A stretch of DNA of 41,053 bases from NCBI GenBank assembly GCA_018650085.1, contig JABIGQ010000035.1:1-41053 (forward strand), in the 5' to 3' direction. Positions within the stretch are counted from its first letter, which is position 1. The number at the start of each line of letters is the position of its first letter. Shown in pieces: positions 534 through 41,018 of the stretch. A program made the position numbers and the translations under genes. This stretch comes from Candidatus Magasanikiibacteriota bacterium. Its GTDB lineage: Bacteria; Patescibacteriota; Patescibacteriia; Magasanikbacterales; UBA922. The notes below the pieces were generated by a model, which saw only the letters and a program-made list of their open reading frames with translations, was not told the DNA's origin and searched no databases.

Positions 534-3122
534 TTAAAGTGTTGGTTCTATAGCATCAGTATTTCCTTTTATAATTTCACCCAATTTTGATCGTTCTATG
601 ATTTCAGTAGATACTATTGTTTTATCTCTCCCGTATTTAAGACGAGATAGTTGAGTAATAGCATTAGCAAGTTCTTTATTCCCTTCTGTTGGGGGATCTG
701 GACGCATAAGGAACGGTTTACTTGCTTGGTTATCTATGAGCATTTTTGTATAAAAAGAAAATTGTGGAGCATTTATAAGATCATAGGAACCAAATACTGG
801 AGCAAATTCTTTTGCTAAAATTTCTGAATCATCTGGCCCTATACGCCCAGACATCATAGTACCTACATTTCCAAGTATAGCATCTCGTACATCTGATTTT
901 CCTTTATCATCGACTAGTTGCCCCATATATTGATGAGCGACAATAAGATCTAATTTATATTTTCTGGCTTCAGATAGAATTGTAGAGATAGAGTCAGTAA
1001 TAAAGTTTTGGAACTCATCTATATAAAGATAAAAATCTTTTCTATCTTCTTCTTCCATATCAGCACGCCCCATAGCAGCCATTTGGAGTTTTGCCACCAC
1101 AATTAGCCCTAGAAGTTTAGAATTTACTTCTCCTGTTTTTCCTTTTGCGAGATTTACCAATAGAATTTTTTCATTATCCATAATGTCACGGAAGTCAAAA
1201 CCAGATTGTTGTTGACCCATGATATTTCTCATCATTTCGTTTCCTACAAATCGTCCTACTTTTGATACCAAGTATCCTAGCATTTCTGATTTTTGGTGGT
1301 CACTTGTCTTTGCCATTTCTTTTTCCCAGAAAGCACGAACGACTGGATCTGTTACTTTATCTAAATATACTTTTACATAATCATCATCTGTAAACATGCG
1401 TGGAATGTCTACGATAGTTCCTGGATTATCAATATCAGCCATGAGGGTTAACATAACATTTCTCATCTGATGTTCAAACATTGGCCCTATCATTTCAGGT
1501 GGAAAAAGTTTATAAAAGATTCCTATCATTTCTTGGACAGCAAAGTCTCTTTCATCTTCTGTTTTTGGCCCAAGCATATTTAGTCCAATTGGTCTTTCTA
1601 GATCAGAAGGATTAAAGATAATAACATCATCAGCTCTATGTTTTGGGATATGTTGAAGGATTGCTTCTACTAAATCTCCATGAGGATCTACTACTGCTAC
1701 ACCTTTTCCTGCTTGTATGTCTTGGATAGCGAGGTTTGCAATAGCAACAGATTTTCCACTTCCAGATTTTCCTATAATATAGAGATGACGACGACGGTCT
1801 GCCTCTTTTATAAATACATCTTCTTTTTGGCCTCTATATTCTACAAATCCAAGTTTCAATCCTTCTTTTGGTAAATTGGCTGGTGGCGGGGCTCCTCTTC
1901 CGGAGAGCCATTTTATATTTGGTGCTTCTGTAGAATGCAGTGGCATATGCCAAAGTGAGGCCATTTCTTCTGTATTCATAACCATGCCCCATTTTTTTTC
2001 AAATGTTCTATAAATAAATTGTTGGATTAATCTTTTTTGATTTTTTGGCACTGCTGCTTTAAAACTATTTCCATATCTATAAAGGTTATACTGACTAAAT
2101 GAATTAAGCAGATTATCTAAATTCATTTGGGCGGTCATTTCATCATCTGATGTGGTGAGAACACGTAAAGTGACTTCTAATCCTCCTTTACTTAGTTTTT
2201 CTTCGATGCCTTTTAACATTTCTTCTTCCATGCCAGAAAGTTCATATTTTTTTTCTGGTGTTATGCCATCTTTTTCTTTTTTACTTCCTTTGAGTAGTTC
2301 TCCTAGAGTTTCTCCTGATTTTTTCATGGCACGCCCAAATCCAGAAGTCAGGGCAACGTCTTCAAATTTGTTTCCTTTTTTTACTTCTCGTACAATACGG
2401 ATAGCATCATTACGCCATGACTTTGGGGCACTACGTACGACAAATTGAATGGCAGCACTGCTTTCTTTTTCTCGTATTTTTGCCAGTACATTTAATACAC
2501 CAGAGAGGGGATCGGAGTCCATTTTTTTATATGTTTTAAATGGAAACACGGCTTTTCTGTCTGCATATAAGTACGCACCCAAGATGGTACTTTTTTCTGT
2601 AAAAATATTATAGTCAGTCATAACGTCAATTTGTGCGTGTGGGTATTGTGCATGAATTTGTTGTTCTATAAAAGGTTGTATTTTTTTTGGGGTATCCACA
2701 TAAAAATAAATCATGCCATTGTGCACGACTATTTCAAAAGAAATATCTGATGTTTTTCCATTAAGCCAGTCTCCAAACCCTTTTTTTGCTTTTAGGCCTG
2801 CAATTGTTGAAAAAAATGTTTCTGTGATACCAATTTCTTCTTTTACTTGCTCTAGCCTATCTTCTTGTCCTGCTTGCCCGCCTTGTCCTTCTGATTTTTT
2901 TTCTTTTGGGACTTGTATTTGTAAGACAATACGTTCAAACGCAACTAGCTTTTTATTTTTTCCATGAAGTACTGCTCGTATAATAAAGAGTGTCGTAACA
3001 ATAGATGATATCCCAAATACAGAAAATAAACCAATCATCATCATTTGTTCTGAAATAGCAACGGACGCTATGGGTGATTGACCGTATGGGTTTGCAGTAA
3101 ATTGAATTAGAAATGAAAGCAT
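534..3122 (-). CDS. VirB4/TraG/VirD4-like (DUF87/HerA-FtsK superfamily) ATPase with N-terminal TM helix
   Basis: Walker A GKSGSGKS after RRRHLYIIG, VVDPHGDL, Walker B YLYIDEFQNF, LSEARKY, AHQY; hydrophobic N-terminal segment. Confidence 0.85.
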   Translation of the reverse strand: MLSFLIQFTANPYGQSPIASVAISEQMMMIGLFSVFGISSIVTTLFIIRAVLHGKNKKLVAFERIVLQIQVPKEKKSEGQGGQAGQEDRLEQVKEEIGITETFFSTIAGLKAKKGFGDWLNGKTSDISFEIVVHNGMIYFYVDTPKKIQPFIEQQIHAQYPHAQIDVMTDYNIFTEKSTILGAYLYADRKAVFPFKTYKKMDSDPLSGVLNVLAKIREKESSAAIQFVVRSAPKSWRNDAIRIVREVKKGNKFEDVALTSGFGRAMKKSGETLGELLKGSKKEKDGITPEKKYELSGMEEEMLKGIEEKLSKGGLEVTLRVLTTSDDEMTAQMNLDNLLNSFSQYNLYRYGNSFKAAVPKNQKRLIQQFIYRTFEKKWGMVMNTEEMASLWHMPLHSTEAPNIKWLSGRGAPPPANLPKEGLKLGFVEYRGQKEDVFIKEADRRRHLYIIGKSGSGKSVAIANLAIQDIQAGKGVAVVDPHGDLVEAILQHIPKHRADDVIIFNPSDLERPIGLNMLGPKTEDERDFAVQEMIGIFYKLFPPEMIGPMFEHQMRNVMLTLMADIDNPGTIVDIPRMFTDDDYVKVYLDKVTDPVVRAFWEKEMAKTSDHQKSEMLGYLVSKVGRFVGNEMMRNIMGQQQSGFDFRDIMDNEKILLVNLAKGKTGEVNSKLLGLIVVAKLQMAAMGRADMEEEDRKDFYLYIDEFQNFITDSISTILSEARKYKLDLIVAHQYMGQLVDDKGKSDVRDAILGNVGTMMSGRIGPDDSEILAKEFAPVFGSYDLINAPQFSFYTKMLIDNQASKPFLMRPDPPTEGNKELANAITQLSRLKYGRDKTIVSTEIIERSKLGEIIKGNTDAIEPTL

Positions 3123-3125
3123 ATA

Positions 3126-3668
3126 TTATTTTGGCATTGCCTTATGTTTTTTGTGAAGTCCTAAGATTTTTTCTGTTTTAATTTTTGCTTCTTGTTCTAA
3201 AAAAAATCTGTTTATTCCAGGGAGCATTTTTAACCATTCAAAGAGTAGTTTTAAAATAGATTTAGTTCGGACATGTGTTTTTTTCAAAAGTTGGCGAATT
3301 TGGATAGCAGTTTGTTCTCCTTTTATTTTAAATTCTTGTCGTTCTACTGGGGAGAGGGAAGTAAATGCTTCTTTTAATCCTTCTTCCATAATATGCTCTA
3401 CTTCTATTGTTATAGCATCTCGTACAATGGGGATCGCTCTTTGTTTTTGTTTTTTTGAAATGCGAAGTTTTCTTTTTAGTGCATCAATAGTAGATTCTAC
3501 AGATGTTTCTTTTCCTTTTTCTGTGGGTTCTAATTCTTTTATTTTTTCAATTTCCATGTCAAAAGCACCTGGTGCTTTTATTTCAGGTGTTTTTATTATT
3601 TGTTCAGGAGACTCAGGAATATACAAAGGGCGTATATCCTGTTCGTGTGGTGTCACGTTTGGTGACAT
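3126..3668 (-). CDS. Hypothetical protein (CPR-type, C-terminal WLKMLPGINRFFLEQEAKIKT)
   Basis: 180-aa ORF ending 3 bp before the ATPase start, co-directional. Confidence 0.75.
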   Translation of the reverse strand: MSPNVTPHEQDIRPLYIPESPEQIIKTPEIKAPGAFDMEIEKIKELEPTEKGKETSVESTIDALKRKLRISKKQKQRAIPIVRDAITIEVEHIMEEGLKEAFTSLSPVERQEFKIKGEQTAIQIRQLLKKTHVRTKSILKLLFEWLKMLPGINRFFLEQEAKIKTEKILGLHKKHKAMPK

Positions 3669-3803: not shown

Positions 3804-6800
3804 ATGAATATGAAAAGGTTTCTTTTTACTTTTATTGTGTTAGGGGTGTTTTTATTTCTCCCAAGAATTTCGCATGCAGCGTCAAATATTTCATCTTGTA
3901 ATATTACAGCAACGGATACTGCTATAAGTTCCTCAGAAAATGAAGTAGTGTTTACTGTTAATTATCTTACTTTTGATCCTGTTATTGTAGATTATCATGA
4001 AAAATTAGCTATAGATAGAAAAGGAGAATTAGATACTATTCATGAAGTATCAGCAAGTGATGTGCTTCTTCCAATAGGGGCTGGTTCATATAGAAAGAAT
4101 TATTCTGTAATATATGAAAAAGGTACTGCATTAAACATGGTATTGGAAGCTCAAATAGGGGATACTGAATGTAAGACACTGGCACTTCCTCTATCTACAT
4201 TTGGTGCAGCGTCAAATGTAGATATAAGTAGTTGTTATGTAGAAGCTACAGACAGTGTTTCTAGTGATACGCATAATGATATTTCATATAATGTTATGTA
4301 TACAAATGCAGGGGCTGTAGATACGGAGGATTATTCTATAAATATAAAAACAGATAAACTAAAAGATCTCACATCTTATTTAGCCAATACTGAATTTTTA
4401 GAGGGGAAAAATTTATTATTTAGTACAGCAAGTGATCTTTCATATAGGCGAGATGAGGTAACATCTTTTGTTGTATCTGCATCTATAGGGGAAACACAGT
4501 GTAGTCCGAAAACAGTTATTACGAGACAACCAGTATCATCTTGTCTTGTAGATTTTCCAAGGATGAATAATGTATCGCAAGGAGTATGGGATCTATCTTA
4601 TACGGTGATGTATTCAAAAGTTGGAGATGAAGGAGTAGATTTTCGAGAAACAGTAGGTGTGGATGGACATGGATTATATCAAAATAATACAGAATCTGGG
4701 TACCCTTTGATAAATGGTGTAGATAATATAACAGCAGAAAGGACCGTTCGATTTGAAAACTCTTTTTTTAATATTATAGATGATGCGCAATTACCAGTGA
4801 GCCTTGATGTATATCTTGGTGGATTTAAATGTGATGGAATAGATATTCCTAGGGAATTATTTCAACAGGCTGAGGAAGAAGTAGTTGTGCATACTCTTCC
4901 AGAACCAGAGGATCCAGATGTTGAACCAGAACAAAGTAATATACAACCAGTGTCATCTTGTTTTGTTTCTGTACAGGTTAAAAATGTAGCTAATGAAGAT
5001 GCAGGAAGATTAGATCTTAGGTATACTGTGAGATATTCAAAAGTTGGGGATGAAGAAGTAGAGTTTAGAGAAATTTTAGGTGTGGATGATTATGCAATAG
5101 ATCAGAATAATGTAGAATCGGGGTACCCTTTGATTGATGGTGTAGATAATATAACAGCAGAAAGAACAGTTCGGTTTGATAGTGTTTTTTTTAATTTTAT
5201 AGATGACGCACAAGCGCCACTTAGTCTGGATGTATATTTAGGTGGATTTAAATGTAATGGAGCAAATATTCCTAGGGAAGTATTTCCACAGTCTGAAGAT
5301 GATATAGAAGTTCCAGATCCTGTAGAATCAGTAGAGGAAAATAATGATGACCCAGATGATGAAGAGGATGTACCAGTTGTAGAGATGTTACAAGTCGATA
5401 TGGAACCAGTATCATCTTGTGCTGTAAGTATAATAGATGGGGCTATAGTAAATGCAGAAAAGAATTCTATTAGTTATCTTGTAACATATTCTAAAATAGG
5501 GAGTGAATATCTAGGATATGGAGAAATAGTTGGAATAATGAATGGAACTGAATTGCCACTATATATAGGTGGGCAAGATAGTTATTATGTGCGTAAGGGA
5601 GATAATAATACACTGCCAAAAAGAACAATAATTTTTAAAAGAGGCACAATGGATTACTCTGCAGGGGAGCCTATTACTGTGGCAGTAGCTATAGGTGGTG
5701 TGGAGTGTGCAGTAGATACTATTTCTAGAGAAACATATTTTATTCCAGAATTAGTACAAGAAAATGAAGTTATAGAAGCTGCCCCAGTAGAAATTTCAAA
5801 TGAGTCTCCAGAATCTTGTCGTGTAAAAGGACGCGATCTCATTTATGATGGGAAACAAAATAAAATAGAATTTCATATTGAATATACCAAATTGGGAGGT
5901 GTCTCTGAAGTCCCATATTCTTACAGTATTATCTCAGATTCAGAGCATGTATTACATGAAGAGATTAAAGACAAACAGTTTTTAATGAAAGGAGCAGATA
6001 TTTCTTTGAATAATCAAAAATTTTATTATCCACGAGAAAATAAAAATAATACTTTGATAAAGGCAAGTTTAGGAAATACAACTTGTGAATCTTTGGATTT
6101 GCGTGTATCTCAACCAATTGTGGTGGATGATATAGAGATTCAAGAAAATGGTGATGTAGGTGATCCAGAACAATTAGAAGGTGAGCCTGAACCACTTCCT
6201 GTTGAGATGATGGGATTAGAAGAAGGAGGAGAACAAGAAGAAGCCCCAGCAGCAGAAGAACAGGTGGCAGAGGTTGTGGAAAATCCATTTGCGGAGGCAC
6301 CACCAGTAGAAGAAGCTGTGGACAATGGGGACGCTCCAATAGGCAATGGTAGTAGTTCTTCTGGCAGTGGTTCTCGAGTTGTGGTTTCAACTGGCGACTC
6401 TGGTAATAATCCTGTGGTAGATACTGAAGATCCTACATGTAGAGTTGTAGCAGAGGGTAGAGTAGTAAATGGACATCTTGAAATTGGTTCTGGTATAGAA
6501 TATAGAAATTTTGAAGATGGAGATTATCAGTATGTATTAAGTGGTAGTTCACTTATTTCACCAAACAATGGAAAAATATATCAAGGAAATATTAGTTTTA
6601 CAAATGATTCTGGAATGATTATTCGTGTGGTAAATAATGCGAGTTTTCCAATGTCTTTTCAATCTGATAATGCAGAGGATGTATTTGTGCTTAATGCAGT
6701 GTTAAATGGAGTAACGTGTCAATCAGTATCATTTGATTATACTCAAATAAATGATGCTATTGAAACAGCGACAGTAGCCAATGGAAGTACTACTGATACT

Positions 6801-7088
6801 ATAGGACCAGGAGTTGCAGTATCTTCTATATCAGTTATTCCAGCAGGTATTGACGAAAGTGATGTTTCTGCGTTACTATCATTGGAGTTGTTAGACGGAG
6901 AAACTATAAATAGAAGGATTCGTTTTACTGGTTTCCCTGTACCAAAGAGTGTCGCTATGACAAAAGAAAAGAGTAATAATATATTTATTCTTATCGCGGT
7001 TTTAGCACTTGTTGGATTAGGATCTGTAGGTTACGGATTGTATCGTCTAAAGAAAAGAAAAAAACACAGTTTTATCCCATATGAATAA
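3804..7088 (+). CDS. Large secreted, C-terminally membrane-anchored acidic repeat protein (7 Cys-pair modules)
   Basis: Signal peptide ending ISHA|A; seven modules starting (S/T)C and ending G-x-x-C; Pro/Glu and Gly/Ser linkers; C-terminal TM helix plus RLKKRKK. Confidence 0.85.
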   Translation: MNMKRFLFTFIVLGVFLFLPRISHAASNISSCNITATDTAISSSENEVVFTVNYLTFDPVIVDYHEKLAIDRKGELDTIHEVSASDVLLPIGAGSYRKNYSVIYEKGTALNMVLEAQIGDTECKTLALPLSTFGAASNVDISSCYVEATDSVSSDTHNDISYNVMYTNAGAVDTEDYSINIKTDKLKDLTSYLANTEFLEGKNLLFSTASDLSYRRDEVTSFVVSASIGETQCSPKTVITRQPVSSCLVDFPRMNNVSQGVWDLSYTVMYSKVGDEGVDFRETVGVDGHGLYQNNTESGYPLINGVDNITAERTVRFENSFFNIIDDAQLPVSLDVYLGGFKCDGIDIPRELFQQAEEEVVVHTLPEPEDPDVEPEQSNIQPVSSCFVSVQVKNVANEDAGRLDLRYTVRYSKVGDEEVEFREILGVDDYAIDQNNVESGYPLIDGVDNITAERTVRFDSVFFNFIDDAQAPLSLDVYLGGFKCNGANIPREVFPQSEDDIEVPDPVESVEENNDDPDDEEDVPVVEMLQVDMEPVSSCAVSIIDGAIVNAEKNSISYLVTYSKIGSEYLGYGEIVGIMNGTELPLYIGGQDSYYVRKGDNNTLPKRTIIFKRGTMDYSAGEPITVAVAIGGVECAVDTISRETYFIPELVQENEVIEAAPVEISNESPESCRVKGRDLIYDGKQNKIEFHIEYTKLGGVSEVPYSYSIISDSEHVLHEEIKDKQFLMKGADISLNNQKFYYPRENKNNTLIKASLGNTTCESLDLRVSQPIVVDDIEIQENGDVGDPEQLEGEPEPLPVEMMGLEEGGEQEEAPAAEEQVAEVVENPFAEAPPVEEAVDNGDAPIGNGSSSSGSGSRVVVSTGDSGNNPVVDTEDPTCRVVAEGRVVNGHLEIGSGIEYRNFEDGDYQYVLSGSSLISPNNGKIYQGNISFTNDSGMIIRVVNNASFPMSFQSDNAEDVFVLNAVLNGVTCQSVSFDYTQINDAIETATVANGSTTDTIGPGVAVSSISVIPAGIDESDVSALLSLELLDGETINRRIRFTGFPVPKSVAMTKEKSNNIFILIAVLALVGLGSVGYGLYRLKKRKKHSFIPYE
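4527..5291 (+). repeat. Intragenic duplication (modules 3 and 4)
   Basis: ~4527-4868 and ~4944-5291 share long DNA blocks (e.g. GGGTACCCTTTGAT, GGTGTAGATAATATAACAGCAGAAAG, GGTGGATTTAAATGT, ATTCCTAGGGAA). Confidence 0.85.
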
Positions 7089-11044: not shown

Positions 11045-11054
11045 AAAAGTTGGT

Positions 11055-11078
11055 GGCTGTGTTCACGGGGACACAGCC
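11055..11078. terminator. Hairpin between convergent genes (possible bidirectional terminator)
   Basis: GGCTGTGTTC-ACGG-GGACACAGCC; T-rich tail on the minus strand. Confidence 0.6.
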
Positions 11079-11107
11079 GTTGACCCTTTACGATTCATCA
11101 TTATTTT

Positions 11108-11302
11108 TTATTTCCTCCTGTTATGGTGTTGTGTTGGGGTGGTTGTACGGGTATGGATGTAAAATCCACACTCATTACACCACAAAGAACAGTCCACTGT
11201 ACGGCTACATGCCGTGTTTAGGACTCTTTTTTTTGTTACGGTTTTTGTGCTCCCACATTTGGGGTTTGGGCACCGTTCTTCCCCCTTTTTCTTGTAGGCC
11301 AT
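11108..11302 (-). CDS. Small basic Cys-rich (zinc-ribbon-like) protein, 64 aa
   Basis: CPNPKC...CSLWCNECG; SD-like GAAAGGGG upstream; GC-rich codons; hairpin downstream. Confidence 0.6.
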   Translation of the reverse strand: MAYKKKGEERCPNPKCGSTKTVTKKRVLNTACSRTVDCSLWCNECGFYIHTRTTTPTQHHNRRK

Positions 11303-11392
11303 TTGGCCCCTTTCTGCCCCACCCGTGATGATGAGGACACTTCATGCAACTAATGATTAATTGACTGAAGTGTAATAAAAAATTTGGCTAAG

Positions 11393-11690: not shown

Positions 11691-11742
11691 AGTATAAGAT
11701 ATATATGTGTAAGTTGTCAATTATTATTAATTTTAGTATACT
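11691..11742. promoter_or_regulatory. Back-to-back sigma70 promoters sharing a palindromic -35 (TTGTCAA)
   Basis: Plus strand: TTGTCA (11714-19)-17-TATACT (11737-42). Minus strand: TTGACA (11720-15)-18-TATACT (11696-91). Confidence 0.6.
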
Positions 11743-11770
11743 AATAGTATATTTATTAAATAAAATATTT

Positions 11771-13396
11771 ATGAAGAATTTTTTCATTGTATTATGTACG
11801 TTTTTATTATTACCCTCAATAGTACACGCAGCGCCTGCTACTAATTATGGATGTAGGGTAGAAGGAAATCTAGAAGAAATTGAAGGAGGAAAAAATCGAT
11901 TATATACAGCAATAAGTTATACGCTTGATAGTGGTGATGTATATGATATCCCATTTAGTATTTCTATGCAGACAAATAGTGGATCATTGGGATCTTATAG
12001 TGGAGAAGTAGATTTATATTATACAGGTGAATCAGTAAATCAATTTGATAGAACTGAAATAAATAGAAGTTTAGTAAGTCCATTGTATCAAGGAGAAGCG
12101 ATTTTAACACCAGAGTTTTCTATACAGGGAAATTCGTCTGTTCAAATAGGCGCTTCTCTAAATGGAATTACATGTACACCACTTATTTTAGAAGTGGTAG
12201 AAGAAGATGTCATTATAGAATGTTTTGCAGAGGGTGCATTAGAATTATTAGATTCGGGTGATAATAGATTGCAGTATTCTCTCATGTATGATGTCTCAGA
12301 AGATAAAGATAATGTGCCATTTTTTATTGAAGTGGTAAATAATGCAGGAAGATTTGATAGTAAAAGTGGTACAGATTCACTTTATGCGGATGCTCAGCTT
12401 GTTGTGTTGTATCAAGGTAACCCTGTACAAATGGTTACTATTCCAGCAGTGATAGATGGAAATATTTCTATAGAAGCCACACTGGGAGGAAAAACTTGTG
12501 ATACAAAACAGCTTACCTTGTTAGAATTACCAGAAGAATTAATTATAGAAGAAATAGAACCGTTGGTAGAAGAACAACCACCTGTAGAACCTCTTGTAGA
12601 AGAAGAATCTGATCCTATCGTAGAAGTACCGCCGATTGTGGAAGAGGAACAGCCAGTGGTTATGGCTGAACCAGAACCGTTACCAGTTGTTGTGGAAGAT
12701 CCAGCTCCAGTGGTGGCAGTGGTTTCTTCTCCGTTTGCTTCTCCAAATGTTCCGCAGACAGTTACTACAGATAATGAAACATCTACAACTGTTTCACCTT
12801 CGTGTACTGTAGTTGCAGAAGGGCAAGTACAAGAAAATGGTAGTATTTTATTAGGGAATGCAATTACCTTTAAAGATTTTGATTTAGGAGAGCATAGTTA
12901 TAGATTAATTGGTTATTCTGAAAATGATAGTTTTGATCAGACACAGTTCATGGATCAGATACAATTTGTAGATACACAAGGGGTATTAATGCAGACAAAC
13001 GCAGTGACTGCTAGTTTCCCAATGATATTTATGCCAAAACAAGCAAATGAGACATTTGTGATTAATGCAATAATTGATGATGTGGTATGTAAATCGGTTA
13101 TGTTTGTCTCTTCTCCTATGATGAATGTTACAGAACTAATTACTGTGTTTCCAAAGGGGACTTCCCAAGAAGTCACAGCAGATGTGCATTCTTTGGCGCT
13201 TATTTCTTCAAATGATAAGGGATTGGCTGAAGATACGGAACCAGTTGTCCGTAATGTAGAATCATCTTCAGAGCTTAGTTCAACCCAGTTTATGGTTATT
13301 ATCATTGTCTCAATTATCTCTGTAGTATTTCTTGCCTTGGTTGGTATGCTTTCTTATGTAAAACTAAAGAAAAAACAGTCAGATTTTTTAAGATAA
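11771..13396 (+). CDS. Secreted membrane-anchored repeat protein (3 Cys-pair modules), paralog of 3804..7088; start revised to ATG 11771
   Basis: Signal MKNFFIVLCTFLLLPSIVHA|A; last module PSCTVVAEG..ASFPM..FVINA..VVCKSV matches PTCRVVAEG..ASFPM..FVLNA..VTCQSV; TM helix plus KLKKK. Confidence 0.85.
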   Translation: MKNFFIVLCTFLLLPSIVHAAPATNYGCRVEGNLEEIEGGKNRLYTAISYTLDSGDVYDIPFSISMQTNSGSLGSYSGEVDLYYTGESVNQFDRTEINRSLVSPLYQGEAILTPEFSIQGNSSVQIGASLNGITCTPLILEVVEEDVIIECFAEGALELLDSGDNRLQYSLMYDVSEDKDNVPFFIEVVNNAGRFDSKSGTDSLYADAQLVVLYQGNPVQMVTIPAVIDGNISIEATLGGKTCDTKQLTLLELPEELIIEEIEPLVEEQPPVEPLVEEESDPIVEVPPIVEEEQPVVMAEPEPLPVVVEDPAPVVAVVSSPFASPNVPQTVTTDNETSTTVSPSCTVVAEGQVQENGSILLGNAITFKDFDLGEHSYRLIGYSENDSFDQTQFMDQIQFVDTQGVLMQTNAVTASFPMIFMPKQANETFVINAIIDDVVCKSVMFVSSPMMNVTELITVFPKGTSQEVTADVHSLALISSNDKGLAEDTEPVVRNVESSSELSSTQFMVIIIVSIISVVFLALVGMLSYVKLKKKQSDFLR

Positions 13397-37955: not shown

Positions 37956-38183
37956 AAAAATATACTTTACAAAGGGATATATGGCTTCTTAATTAATATA
38001 TTTATAAAGAATTATCTAGTTTCATTGCATGTTTTTTAAAAATATGTTAACTTAATTAAGTTAGATGATTTAGTATATATTACTCTTATATGAGTTTTAT
38101 TTGTTTGGGGGACATTGACATTAATCTGTTTTTATTATAAAGCATCCTTTTTTGGATGTTTTTTTATTTATCTGTTAAAAAAT

Positions 38184-41018
38184 ATGTATAAGAAAATTTT
38201 GTTGCTGGGTATTATTATTTGTGGAATAAGTCTGTTTAGTAATCAAGCATATGCTCGTTATAGTGGTTTTATGCCTGCTATGGGGGATGTTCTTGTAGAG
38301 GAAACTGGGTATGAACGAGCATTAGTGACAGAAGATGGAAAATTAGAGTTGTGGAGTGCTTCTGGAGAAATGATGGCAGGATTTCCTGTATTACTTACAG
38401 ATGCTACATATATAAGTTCTCCAGTATTTGCAGATGTTACAGGGGATGGGCAAAATGAAATTATAGTAATAATTCATGATAGATCAGCTGAGGATTATGT
38501 TATTAGTGCATTTGATCAGACAGGGCAAGAATTTGTTCGTTCTGTATTGGAAACGCAGGAAGATATATATTTTGATCCTATAGTAATGGAAAGTAATAGT
38601 GAAAATTCGCAAGATATTGGGATTATTAATATTATAGGAACATTTCAACAATTGCATTATAGTGTAGCAGATGGTTTTATTTCTGTTGATACGCATGCAT
38701 TTGGACAAGCTGCTGGGGTAAGTATTGCAGCTGGGGGAGAATTACTCGTAAACTATCCAACTGAAGCAAAAATAGATATTTATACAAAAAATGAGTTAGG
38801 ATTATGGAGTTATGATCAGAATTTTGAATTAGATACTTCAATCATTTATCCACTTGTGGATGATGGTTTAGAACGATTTTATAGTATTGATCGTAATGGA
38901 GCGCTTGTAGCATTGCATAGTCAGACAGGGGAGATGATTACAGAGTTTCCTGTAGATTTATCGTCAATGCCACGAACTAGCCCAATTCTCTTAGATGTTT
39001 CAGATGAATATGAAGGAGATGAAATTGTGGTACAAGGAGAAAATAGAAAGCAATATATTGTTAGTAGAGATGGAGTGATTATTGAAATCACAGAGCAAGA
39101 ACAAAGTTTTGTTTCAGGAGATGTAGCTCAAGCTATTCCATATGAGAAAAATTTGTTTGGGAAAATTGGTGGGATAGGGATATCTTTTTGGAATCGTATT
39201 ACACATACAATGACGTCTATGTTTGCAAGCATTCGTATGGCTGTTACAGAAGCAGCACCAGAGATGCATGTGTTTATCTATAACGATGAAATGATTGGAG
39301 GAGAAAATTTTGATTTAGGGGCAATTCCATTTACAGATGAACAAAGTTATCCTGTGTCATTTAGGGTTGAAAATAATGGGAATATAGATCTTATTATTGA
39401 TGAAATTACCTGTGAAATTGAATCAAATACTACATGTACTTTTAAAGAGACAGAATTAATTATTCCACCACAAGAAAGTAAGATGATTGAGCTTGATTTG
39501 GCTGTGAATAATCTGGATCCTATAAATGCTGGAATTATTTTTGAAACGAATGATCCTACATATCCTGGTAGTTATGGGATTAATATATTGGCCACTCCGC
39601 AGGTGAATTTTGTCGTTGATGGGAATATGGAAGATCCCGTACATGAGTGGAGACGGTGGAGTAGACCGCATAATGTGGATTATAAATTTAAAACAGACAC
39701 AAATGTGTATAGGGGCGCTTATGCATCTTACATTGATGCACGTCCTACAGAAGAAGGAGATGTTCACGCGGGAATACAGCAATTAAATATACCAGTAGAG
39801 GCTGGAAAATCATATAGATTTAGTTTCCGATATAAATTGTTGTCAGGAGAGCTTTTTAGTATCCTTGGAGTACGCAGTTCAAATATAGATATGGGGAAAG
39901 CTGCGCCAGCATTGGTAGAAGTAGGTAATGCATGGCAATTTTATGAAAGAACATTTATTGTTCCAAGTAATTATGTTGATGATTTTCGAGTACGTATAAG
40001 TGTTTATTCTGGAGAAGTATATTTAGATGATATTACTATTACAGAAATCCCAGCACTTTCTATTGTACGAGATGGAGATTTTGAATCAGATAATGTAGAA
40101 CATTGGAGTGGTTGGGGTAGAAATACTAATTGGAGAAAAGTGACTTCAACCGTATATGCAGGAGATCAGTCATTAGAAATAGGGAATGTAGATAGAGTAA
40201 GTGGTGGAATGTATCAAAATAATATACCATTAGATAGTGATAAATTATATCAATTTTCATTTAAATATAATGTTGGGTCTGGGGTATTATATACAATTAT
40301 TGGAGATAATAGTGCAAATAAAGATGTAGAAGGACTTACCCCATATCTTCGAAATACTCATGGAGAATGGAAAGAATATACAAGAATAATTTCTGGTAGT
40401 GTATTTACTACACAAAATCCACTTATCCGATTTAGTACTAGAAATGGTATTTCTTGGATAGATGATGTAGAAATAATTGAGATAGATGCACCGGTAATGA
40501 TTATAGATGGAGATATGGAAAATGAAGGGTTGGGTAATTGGGAAAATTATTCCAATGCTCTAACTCTTGAAAAAACAGGAGTAGATTCTCAAGAAGGAGT
40601 TCAATCATTATATGTACAGACTACGAGTAGTGCACAGTATAATATAGGTGGGGTACAGTATAGAAATATATTTGTAGAGGCAGGAAAAACATATACGCTT
40701 TCTTTCTACTATAAAGTAAATGGTTCATTGATCCCACGATTGGGTATAAATGACTCAGATACAGATTTTGAGCTTACTGAAATGGATGTTCCAGAGCTTG
40801 ATCCTAGTGTAGAATGGGCATTATATACACGTACGTTCACTGTACCACAGGATTTCACAGGAGATTTTAGACTTGTGTATAGATTACAAAGTTGGTATGT
40901 GGATGGTGTAGAGGAAATTGAATATGAAGGACAAATATATGAAGCCCCTCATCATGAGTTTGTAGGAAATGGTGAGCTGTGGGTGGATAATGTCTTTATA
41001 GAATCAGTAGTTGAATAA
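38184..41018 (+). CDS. Large secreted protein: FG-GAP-like N-region, Ig-like middle, three CBM4/9-like repeats (start revised to ATG 38184)
   Basis: Signal ending AYA|R; ADVTGDGQNEII; F.VEN.G...L.I and FETNDP; repeats starting DGNME/DGDFE/DGDME and ending LDDI/IDDV/VDNV. Confidence 0.75.
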   Translation: MYKKILLLGIIICGISLFSNQAYARYSGFMPAMGDVLVEETGYERALVTEDGKLELWSASGEMMAGFPVLLTDATYISSPVFADVTGDGQNEIIVIIHDRSAEDYVISAFDQTGQEFVRSVLETQEDIYFDPIVMESNSENSQDIGIINIIGTFQQLHYSVADGFISVDTHAFGQAAGVSIAAGGELLVNYPTEAKIDIYTKNELGLWSYDQNFELDTSIIYPLVDDGLERFYSIDRNGALVALHSQTGEMITEFPVDLSSMPRTSPILLDVSDEYEGDEIVVQGENRKQYIVSRDGVIIEITEQEQSFVSGDVAQAIPYEKNLFGKIGGIGISFWNRITHTMTSMFASIRMAVTEAAPEMHVFIYNDEMIGGENFDLGAIPFTDEQSYPVSFRVENNGNIDLIIDEITCEIESNTTCTFKETELIIPPQESKMIELDLAVNNLDPINAGIIFETNDPTYPGSYGINILATPQVNFVVDGNMEDPVHEWRRWSRPHNVDYKFKTDTNVYRGAYASYIDARPTEEGDVHAGIQQLNIPVEAGKSYRFSFRYKLLSGELFSILGVRSSNIDMGKAAPALVEVGNAWQFYERTFIVPSNYVDDFRVRISVYSGEVYLDDITITEIPALSIVRDGDFESDNVEHWSGWGRNTNWRKVTSTVYAGDQSLEIGNVDRVSGGMYQNNIPLDSDKLYQFSFKYNVGSGVLYTIIGDNSANKDVEGLTPYLRNTHGEWKEYTRIISGSVFTTQNPLIRFSTRNGISWIDDVEIIEIDAPVMIIDGDMENEGLGNWENYSNALTLEKTGVDSQEGVQSLYVQTTSSAQYNIGGVQYRNIFVEAGKTYTLSFYYKVNGSLIPRLGINDSDTDFELTEMDVPELDPSVEWALYTRTFTVPQDFTGDFRLVYRLQSWYVDGVEEIEYEGQIYEAPHHEFVGNGELWVDNVFIESVVE

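Follow-up and report, generated by a model that had tools for sequence, protein, structure and literature searches.

A rare family of two-cysteine Ig-like modules in Patescibacteria, with a seven-module member that is a candidate disulfide-clamped surface tether

Contig C52 of the Candidatus Magasanikiibacteriota genome G000 (1.0 Mb, 64 contigs, rated 100% complete) is the stretch of DNA analyzed here at its full length of 41,053 nt (~34% GC), below called the window. An open reading frame (ORF) at 3804–7088 on the forward strand of the window encodes P0001, a protein of 1094 aa with seven modules, each containing a single pair of cysteines. As judged from profile searches, these modules define a rare sequence family of immunoglobulin (Ig)-like domains that is new and has no name yet. 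The evidence described below suggests that P0001 is probably a Sec-exported type I surface protein of a marine cell of the candidate phyla radiation (CPR) with a ~1 Mb genome, where it would function as a disulfide-clamped Ig-like tether or adhesin.

The earlier note on this DNA, made from the sequence letters and a list of ORFs, described a signal peptide, acidic spacers, a C-terminal transmembrane (TM) segment and a basic tail, and all of these are found in P0001 (all coordinates in this paragraph refer to the forward strand). The signal peptide (aa 1–25, 3804–3878), judged by eye from the translation, consists of MNMKR, a hydrophobic core and SHA followed by AS, with no lipobox cysteine. 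It is followed by modules A1 (3882–4199, Cys32/Cys123), A2 (4218–4529, Cys144/Cys233) and A3 (4527–4859, Cys247/Cys343), an acidic Pro/Glu spacer (aa 353–380, 4860–4943; D+E 32%, P 14%, K+R 0), module A4 (4944–5282, Cys386/Cys484), a second acidic spacer (aa 494–533, 5283–5402; D+E 42%, P 12%), modules A5 (5403–5735, Cys539/Cys635) and A6 (5802–6113, Cys672/Cys761), a long spacer that is acidic and rich in Pro/Glu in its first part and in Gly/Ser thereafter (aa 771–873, 6114–6422), and module A7 (6423–6746, Cys879/Cys972). The juxtamembrane segment (6747–6980) contains the motif 'V.P.G...D...L.L', which stands out as conserved columns in the family alignment, and precedes a single TM helix (aa 1060–1080, 6981–7043), a hydrophobic 21-mer that corresponds to helix 399–429 of the modeled construct discussed below. 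The translation ends with the basic cytoplasmic tail RLKKRKKHSFIPYE and the stop codon (7044–7088). Across the spacers of P0001, D+E accounts for 23–42% of the residues, P for 9–14% and K+R for 0–1%, and the net charge of the ectodomain is -111. The predicted topology is that of a type I membrane protein, with ~1030 residues on the extracellular side.

All 14 cysteines of P0001 form seven pairs, one per module of ~100 aa, as the earlier note stated, with spacings of 91, 89, 96, 98, 96, 89 and 93 residues in A1 to A7, respectively (range 89–98), and with the flanking motifs that it quoted. The window encodes a paralog, P0004 (541 aa; 11771–13396, forward strand, within the ORF 11705–13396, with 11771 as the probable start), which consists of a signal peptide, two N-type modules, an acidic spacer, one C-type module (the two types are discussed below), a TM helix and a basic tail; its cysteines form three pairs spaced by 107, 92 and 95 residues. 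A search of the whole genome identifies the seven modules of P0001 and the three of P0004, and none besides. In the alignment of these ten modules, the two cysteines are invariant, and a tyrosine is nearly invariant within the strand 'L.Y.V.Y', the one that had been recognized as a conserved 'I/L.Y/F.V.Y' strand.

To avoid circularity, the N-type and C-type profiles were built from proteins of other organisms alone. The foreign N-type profile matches, in register, A1 (E-value 1.5e-5), A2 (9.6e-14), A6 (3.7e-13) and A7 (1.1e-8), whereas only partial matches are obtained with A3, A4 and A5 (0.16, 0.022 and 0.0011, respectively); the foreign C-type profile matches A7, with its characteristic 'C.VVAEG...' sequence, with an E-value of 4.3e-27. 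In profile-profile comparisons using hhalign, the profile of the three sequences A3–A5 is similar to the N-type profile (probability 81%, E 1.3e-5, 96 columns), and the N-type profile is similar to the C-type profile (probability 97%, E 1.1e-10, 103 columns). Given these matches, the seven modules are assigned to one homologous group with three subtypes, namely the N-type (A1, A2 and A6), a divergent N-type (A3–A5) and the C-type (A7), so that the original description of seven copies of one module holds with respect to homology but not with respect to uniformity. Modules A3–A5 contain an inserted short helix; A5 is 35% identical to A3, whereas A3 and A4 share 69% amino acid identity and are encoded by a 300-nt direct DNA repeat, 80% identical, with a spacing of 423 nt. 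The combination of the protein identity and the DNA repeat indicates that A3 and A4 result from a recent tandem duplication.

Searches of Pfam and NCBIfam (hmmscan) and of the PDB sequences detect no match above the cut-off for either P0001 or its paralog, although the modules may be remote members of an Ig-like clan, and a PDB sequence profile search yields no matches at E <= 10. The profile PF00746 aligns with the TM segment and the tail of P0001 at 14.1 bits, below the cut-off of 20. A Pfam scan of the family members gives the same picture: 29 of the 31 match no family (matches counted at E <= 0.01), and the remaining two show PF17870 on a TM segment and a weak match to DUF7757, respectively. 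When the ten modules from both paralogs were aligned, as the earlier note had proposed, and the resulting profile was compared with 1.84 billion representative proteins, 36 matches at E <= 1e-3 were obtained, which include 30 other family members, the two window proteins, one fragment of the paralog (P0025) and three false positives (P0034, P0035 and P0038, long unrelated repeat proteins). The family members (P0005–P0037, except for the false positives P0034 and P0035, and P0039) are named 'hypothetical protein' wherever the sources name them. A word-index homolog search started with P0001 retrieves only P0001 itself, and one started with the family alignment retrieves at least three matches, all 'hypothetical protein'. 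The best score in the ESM Atlas is 0.80, under the lead threshold of 0.9. A contig pattern search with one family alignment produced 106 pattern matches, none of which was confirmed; with another family alignment, a contig search identified two loci, L043 from a Ca. Magasanikiibacteriota metagenome-assembled genome and L042. The latter (CAZQRI010000023.1), which carries a family member, is labeled 'uncultured Gammaproteobacteria', but this label is probably wrong because the gene order is the same as in L043 and the GC content is 37%. A full-text literature search found no description of this family, although such genes might be listed among unclassified neighbors in the supplements of PMC12102498.

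The common architecture of the family consists of a signal peptide, one or two N-type modules, a low-complexity linker, one C-type module, the 'V.P.G...D...L.L' segment, a TM helix and a short basic tail. The 32 full-length proteins contain 75 modules in total (two modules in 25 proteins, three in six proteins and seven in P0001), and each of the 75 modules holds exactly two cysteines, 89–112 residues apart, with no other cysteines in the mature parts of the proteins. By sequence, P0001 belongs to this family: it has N-type modules, a C-type module as the last, membrane-proximal one, two cysteines per module, a signal peptide, and a TM helix with a basic tail. It differs from the other members in having seven modules and the lineage-specific divergent subtype A3–A5; in terms of profile matches, it is an expanded member with six N-type modules and one C-type module, compared with the usual one or two N-type modules and one C-type module.

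The distribution of the family is patchy. The family profile matches 5 of 60 related genomes. All five come from the window's own taxonomic family, represented by 36 genomes, and none of the 24 genomes that represent nine further families of this order has a match; when the phylum is sampled evenly, 2 of 400 genomes match. Such a patchy occurrence is expected of an accessory surface protein. Contigs with at least 99% identity are present in marine or seawater metagenome runs of four studies, one of which is possibly the source of the genome. In the parts covered by the contigs of four runs, of which X6 and X7 reach only 21 and 15 of 30 bins, respectively, the differences are confined to point changes; insertions, deletions and joints are all absent, so that no variants in module copy number are seen there.

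Structural models support the suggestion, made in the earlier note, that the modules are beta-sandwiches. The AlphaFold2 model of A3, based on the alignment of the ten modules, is an all-beta sandwich (mean pLDDT 83.6, pTM 0.77). The second model, of P0001 residues 660–1094, based on an alignment of 29 family members, contains A6 and A7 as sandwiches (block pLDDT 65–92; 80–92 for A7) separated by a 103-residue spacer that is predicted to be disordered (pLDDT 38–59, without secondary structure). Behind A7, there is a helix, followed by short juxtamembrane helices and then the TM helix; in the juxtamembrane segment, with its helices and a short strand, the pLDDT is up to 87. In all three modeled modules (A3, A6 and A7), the first cysteine is one of residues 1–4 of strand 1, and the second cysteine lies in the short turn or bridge that connects the penultimate strand to a final strand of 4–6 residues.

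A Foldseek search of the PDB with A3 detects no match at E <= 1e-3, and the search with the two-module model retrieves only tandem beta-sandwich proteins (transglutaminase C-terminal barrels, VPS26, Cpe0147 and RbmA). VIA-align, run against 48,161 chains, gives the best Z score, 9.0, for Ig-like domains of GH2 enzymes, and its list includes the ester-bond repeats of Cpe0147 (7.9) and Gemella (7.7) and the Mobiluncus adhesin (6.8), although, according to the tool's own note, Z scores of 7–8 are typical of models without a clear match. Since these values are those of generic matches, the modeled fold is a common Ig-like sandwich rather than a new fold, and the novelty is limited to the unnamed sequence family. 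Thus, the description of the module as unrecognized is borne out by the Pfam and NCBIfam searches but does not extend to the fold.

Conservation, the position relative to the strands and analogy together strongly suggest that each module contains one intramodule disulfide. The genome encodes three DsbA-like proteins of the thioredoxin fold, anchored in the membrane at their N-termini, with the motifs CPYC, CANC and CPFC. Furthermore, exported-like ORFs more often have even cysteine counts (65 even vs 34 odd) than cytoplasmic-like ORFs do (198 even vs 233 odd; Fisher p = 5e-4), with the split made by a crude home-made classifier and P0001 itself mis-scored as odd. Genome G000 also contains three other Cys-rich exported-like ORFs (contig C50, 26630–29251; C6, 13585–15354; and C37, 5037–8621; with 66, 33 and 24 cysteines past residue 35, respectively), which may encode further disulfide-dependent surface proteins.

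Among the closest known counterparts of P0001 are the ester-bond Ig adhesins of Gram-positive bacteria (Cpe0147 of Clostridium perfringens, PDB 4MKM; Gemella, 8F9L; Mobiluncus mulieris, 5U6F), in which tandem Ig-like beta-sandwich repeats build a shaft at the cell surface. The alignment of 4mkm_A with the A3 model (rmsd 2.9, 99 residues aligned, model 1–110 vs chain 6–146) has a Z score of 7.9, which is generic in size. In Cpe0147, the ester bond T11–Q141 joins the first and the last strands so that force bypasses the domain, and a disulfide takes the place of this bond in an engineered T11C/Q141C version (PMC8382745); for the Mobiluncus adhesin, both ester and isopeptide links between the first and the last strands are described (PMC10619420). 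In the A3 model, the aligned range begins 5 residues ahead of Cys6 and ends 8 residues past Cys102; the corresponding distances for T11 and Q141 of 4MKM are 5 and 5. This is a comparison of ranges only and not of aligned residues. By this analogy, the cysteine pair of the module would lie roughly at the positions of T11 and Q141.

Beyond this similarity, the two groups of proteins differ in several respects. There is no sequence similarity between P0001 and the ester-bond adhesins, and the motif HxDxxDxxQ (taken from PMC10619420) is missing in both P0001 and P0004, as determined by a regular expression search. The link in P0001 would be a disulfide and not an autocatalytic ester or isopeptide bond. 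No LPXTG-like or other canonical sorting signal is found in P0001, and no sortase (PF04203) in the genome; the protein is anchored by a TM helix, not by a sortase, and has no N-terminal thioester or adhesive tip domain. The P0001 modules are set apart by acidic disordered spacers, whereas the repeats of ester-bond adhesins are rigidly stacked. Given that HxDxxDxxQ, LPXTG and a sortase are all missing, P0001 is placed, by sequence, outside both the ester-bond and the sortase-anchored adhesin families. As far as the analogy goes, it could be viewed as a new form within an established class of surface proteins, the cross-linked Ig-repeat tethers.

The P0001 modules also resemble the domains of the classical Ig superfamily: both are beta-sandwiches of ~100 residues with one conserved disulfide, putative in the case of P0001, and both form arrays in type I membrane proteins. 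In canonical Ig domains, the disulfide bridges strands B and F across the sandwich. In the modeled modules of P0001, by contrast, one cysteine is part of the first strand and the other immediately precedes the last one, and there is no Pfam Ig match. The best fold matches, the Ig-like domains of GH2 glycosidases and of the Sec63 units of Brr2 (Z 8.0–9.0, rmsd 3.2–3.4, 95–104 residues aligned, 8–13% identity), are internal to enzymes and helicases and lack the cysteine pair, the repeat array and the membrane anchor.

The architecture of P0001, together with the putative disulfides, suggests the following mechanism as the most likely one. The seven Ig-like modules, strung on the acidic disordered Pro/Glu spacers and held at the membrane by one C-terminal helix, would each contain a disulfide that ties the beginning of strand 1 to the stretch immediately preceding the final strand. 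Such a bond, connecting residue ~6 to residue ~102 of the ~110-residue module, would place ~90 of ~105 residues inside a covalent loop. A pulling force would then pass through the S–S bond and bypass the fold, so that the chain could act as a long, hard-to-unfold tether or stalk. The clamp would be introduced by DsbA-type oxidation and would not depend on a sortase, and the acidic spacers would give the chain reach and hold it off the surface of its own cell. That the distal modules adhere to a host cell or another surface, in line with the host-attachment adhesin of an episymbiont suggested in the earlier note, is plausible for a CPR cell but is purely inferred.

The gene immediately downstream of P0001 encodes the methionyl-tRNA synthetase (MetRS), and the stop codon of P0001 overlaps its start codon (7081) by 8 nt. 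This overlap (7081–7088) suggests that the genes for a surface protein and a tRNA synthetase are transcribed together and coupled in translation. In the opposite direction, the divergent genes of the window encode an 862-aa VirD4/TraD-like type IV coupling protein (T4CP) with an N-terminal extension of ~420 aa (534–3122, reverse strand; PF02534, PF10412, PF12696) and, next to it, a 180-aa protein without a Pfam match (3126–3668, reverse strand). The arrangement of this pair is conserved in two other genomes, G001 and G008; a VirB4-like gene of G000 is located on another contig, C54. In G008, the block mirrors the window, with TatD, further genes, a CvpA fusion, MetRS and the three-module family member P0006 on one side and a 213-aa protein and an 861-aa VirD4-like ATPase diverging from them. 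The CvpA homolog of G008 (L024, G008:C57, 3064–5307, reverse strand) is a 747-aa protein fused to Memo-like and PGA_cap domains, whereas the window CvpA is a stand-alone protein of 178 aa.

Over its entire length, P0006 aligns with the final ~430 aa of P0001, with A6 corresponding to module 2 of P0006 in BLASTP. Because the two genes occupy equivalent slots and P0006 aligns along the C-terminal ~430 aa, P0001 is identified, by gene order and sequence, as the positional ortholog of P0006 expanded by five extra N-terminal modules. In G001, which belongs to the same genus, the gene between the T4CP pair and MetRS was considered as a candidate ortholog and rejected: this slot (L035, G001:C20, 4091–7264, reverse strand) encodes an unrelated protein of 1057 aa, without a Pfam match or an evident signal peptide. 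A transglutaminase-like appearance of this protein, noticed by eye, was not confirmed. Given its unrelated occupant in G001, the slot between the T4CP pair and MetRS is variable.

Several observations weigh against the interpretation of P0001 as a disulfide-clamped tether or adhesin. The assignment of the disulfides draws on conservation, strand position and analogy, and a genome search does not find DsbB or VKOR, the reoxidants of DsbA-like proteins. No recognizable binding domain, lectin or thioester tip is detected in the Pfam, NCBIfam and fold searches, and all seven modules are of one general type. Typical members of the family have two modules, which is short for a stalk. The Z scores of 7–9 are typical of unmatched models, so the likeness to the ester-bond adhesin repeats is non-specific. 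Finally, no functional neighborhood is conserved: the genes are adjacent to MetRS and T4CP in two genomes, to EpmA-like and EF-P genes in two genomes, and to unrelated genes elsewhere.

An alternative is that P0001 is a structural component of the envelope, e.g., of a surface layer, or a wall-spanning spacer, an S-layer-like protein or a ruler, which has no specific ligand and in which the disulfides only stabilize the modules. The evidence on architecture fits this role equally well, and so does the failure of Pfam and NCBIfam searches to reveal a binding domain; the ectodomain is strongly acidic, as is common in surface-layer proteins; and the gene is located among housekeeping genes, with the overlap with MetRS, and family members elsewhere adjoin EpmA-like and EF-P genes. 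However, a core part of the envelope would be expected to be widespread, and the patchy distribution of the family described above is hard to square with a purely structural function. In addition, the corresponding slot in G001 is filled by an unrelated protein, and the genome carries two copies that differ in the number of modules. Thus, the envelope-structural role appears unlikely.

Still less likely, we believe, is the possibility that the cysteines do not staple individual modules but form intermolecular or inter-module disulfides, producing a covalent surface mesh, or serve as redox-sensing or metal-binding thiols. Where modules abut, the second cysteine is separated from the first cysteine of the next module by just 13–21 residues, and the apparent lack of DsbB and VKOR in the genome is also compatible with this possibility. 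Nevertheless, exactly two cysteines are found in every module, with or without a neighboring module. Among the 25 proteins with two modules, a distance of 38–129 residues across low-complexity linkers separates the pairs, so that inter-module pairing would leave the first and the last cysteines without partners; in the three models, both cysteines are at the edges of one sandwich; and a usual metal site would require more than a pair of thiols separated by 90 residues.

It is highly improbable that P0001 is a contact adhesin for a type IV secretion system (T4SS), stabilizing cell–cell contact in a PrgB-type role as in monoderm conjugation, given that, notwithstanding the divergent block of a VirD4-like ATPase and a small protein facing the family protein and MetRS in both G000 and G008, and the VirB4-like ATPase gene on C54, the same T4CP block flanks an unrelated protein in G001, other family members, including the paralog P0004, are not adjacent to T4SS genes, and adjacency in two related genomes may be plain inherited gene order. 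The findings of PMC12102498 can be read both ways: according to this paper, the T4SSs of monoderms depend on adhesins at the cell surface, and Patescibacteria yielded no PrgB-like adhesin, but the paper also notes that most patescibacterial T4CPs are distant from virB4 and may have other roles.

The housekeeping genes of the window include those for MetRS, CvpA, TatD, UppS, the ATP synthase operon, ProRS, MreBCD and PBP2, a gene content typical of a reduced, monoderm-like genome of the ~1 Mb marine Patescibacteria (CPR) type. Upstream of the paralog, the region 11045–11345 (forward strand) is non-coding, with a GC content of 40–54% compared with ~34% for the window, and contains a perfect 16-bp hairpin; its folding energy is -97.3 kcal/mol (z -2.57), a value matched by 2 of 100 shuffles. 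No match is found when the window, including this region, is scanned for Rfam families and tRNAs, and the region may encode a structured RNA not described so far or serve as a regulatory leader. Close to the end of the window (38115–41018, forward strand), there is a gene for a 967-aa exported protein with FG-GAP-like and HYDIN/VesB Ig-like matches and three CBM_4_9 repeats; in genome G014, a related protein with CBM repeats is encoded directly upstream of a family member.

The interpretation of P0001 as a disulfide-clamped, Ig-like tether or adhesin can be extended to the entire family in the form of a bolder scenario, which is conceivable albeit doubtful. Under this scenario, a lineage-restricted family of ultra-small bacteria has evolved a force-proof tether with a first-to-last-strand disulfide clamp, which would be the natural equivalent of the engineered T11C/Q141C domain of Cpe0147, and with a TM anchor in place of a sortase-dependent one, in which the number of modules, from 2 to 7, is tuned by tandem duplication for reach, and the seven-module form holds an epibiont on its host, possibly in conjunction with the neighboring T4CP.

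Attachment of Patescibacteria to other cells is known mainly for the type IV pili of Saccharibacteria, and the survey of patescibacterial T4SS reports no PrgB-like adhesins (PMC12102498). Against this background, the family described here offers a concrete candidate, open to testing, for a surface tether other than a pilus elsewhere in the phylum. The module is small, models well and can be defined as a new domain family. Should P0001 lack the disulfides or the surface location, it would be one more hypothetical membrane protein with Ig-like repeats. If the proposed mechanism is correct, however, the covalent clamp across an Ig domain, known from the ester and isopeptide bonds of Gram-positive pathogens, would have been reached independently, with a plain disulfide.

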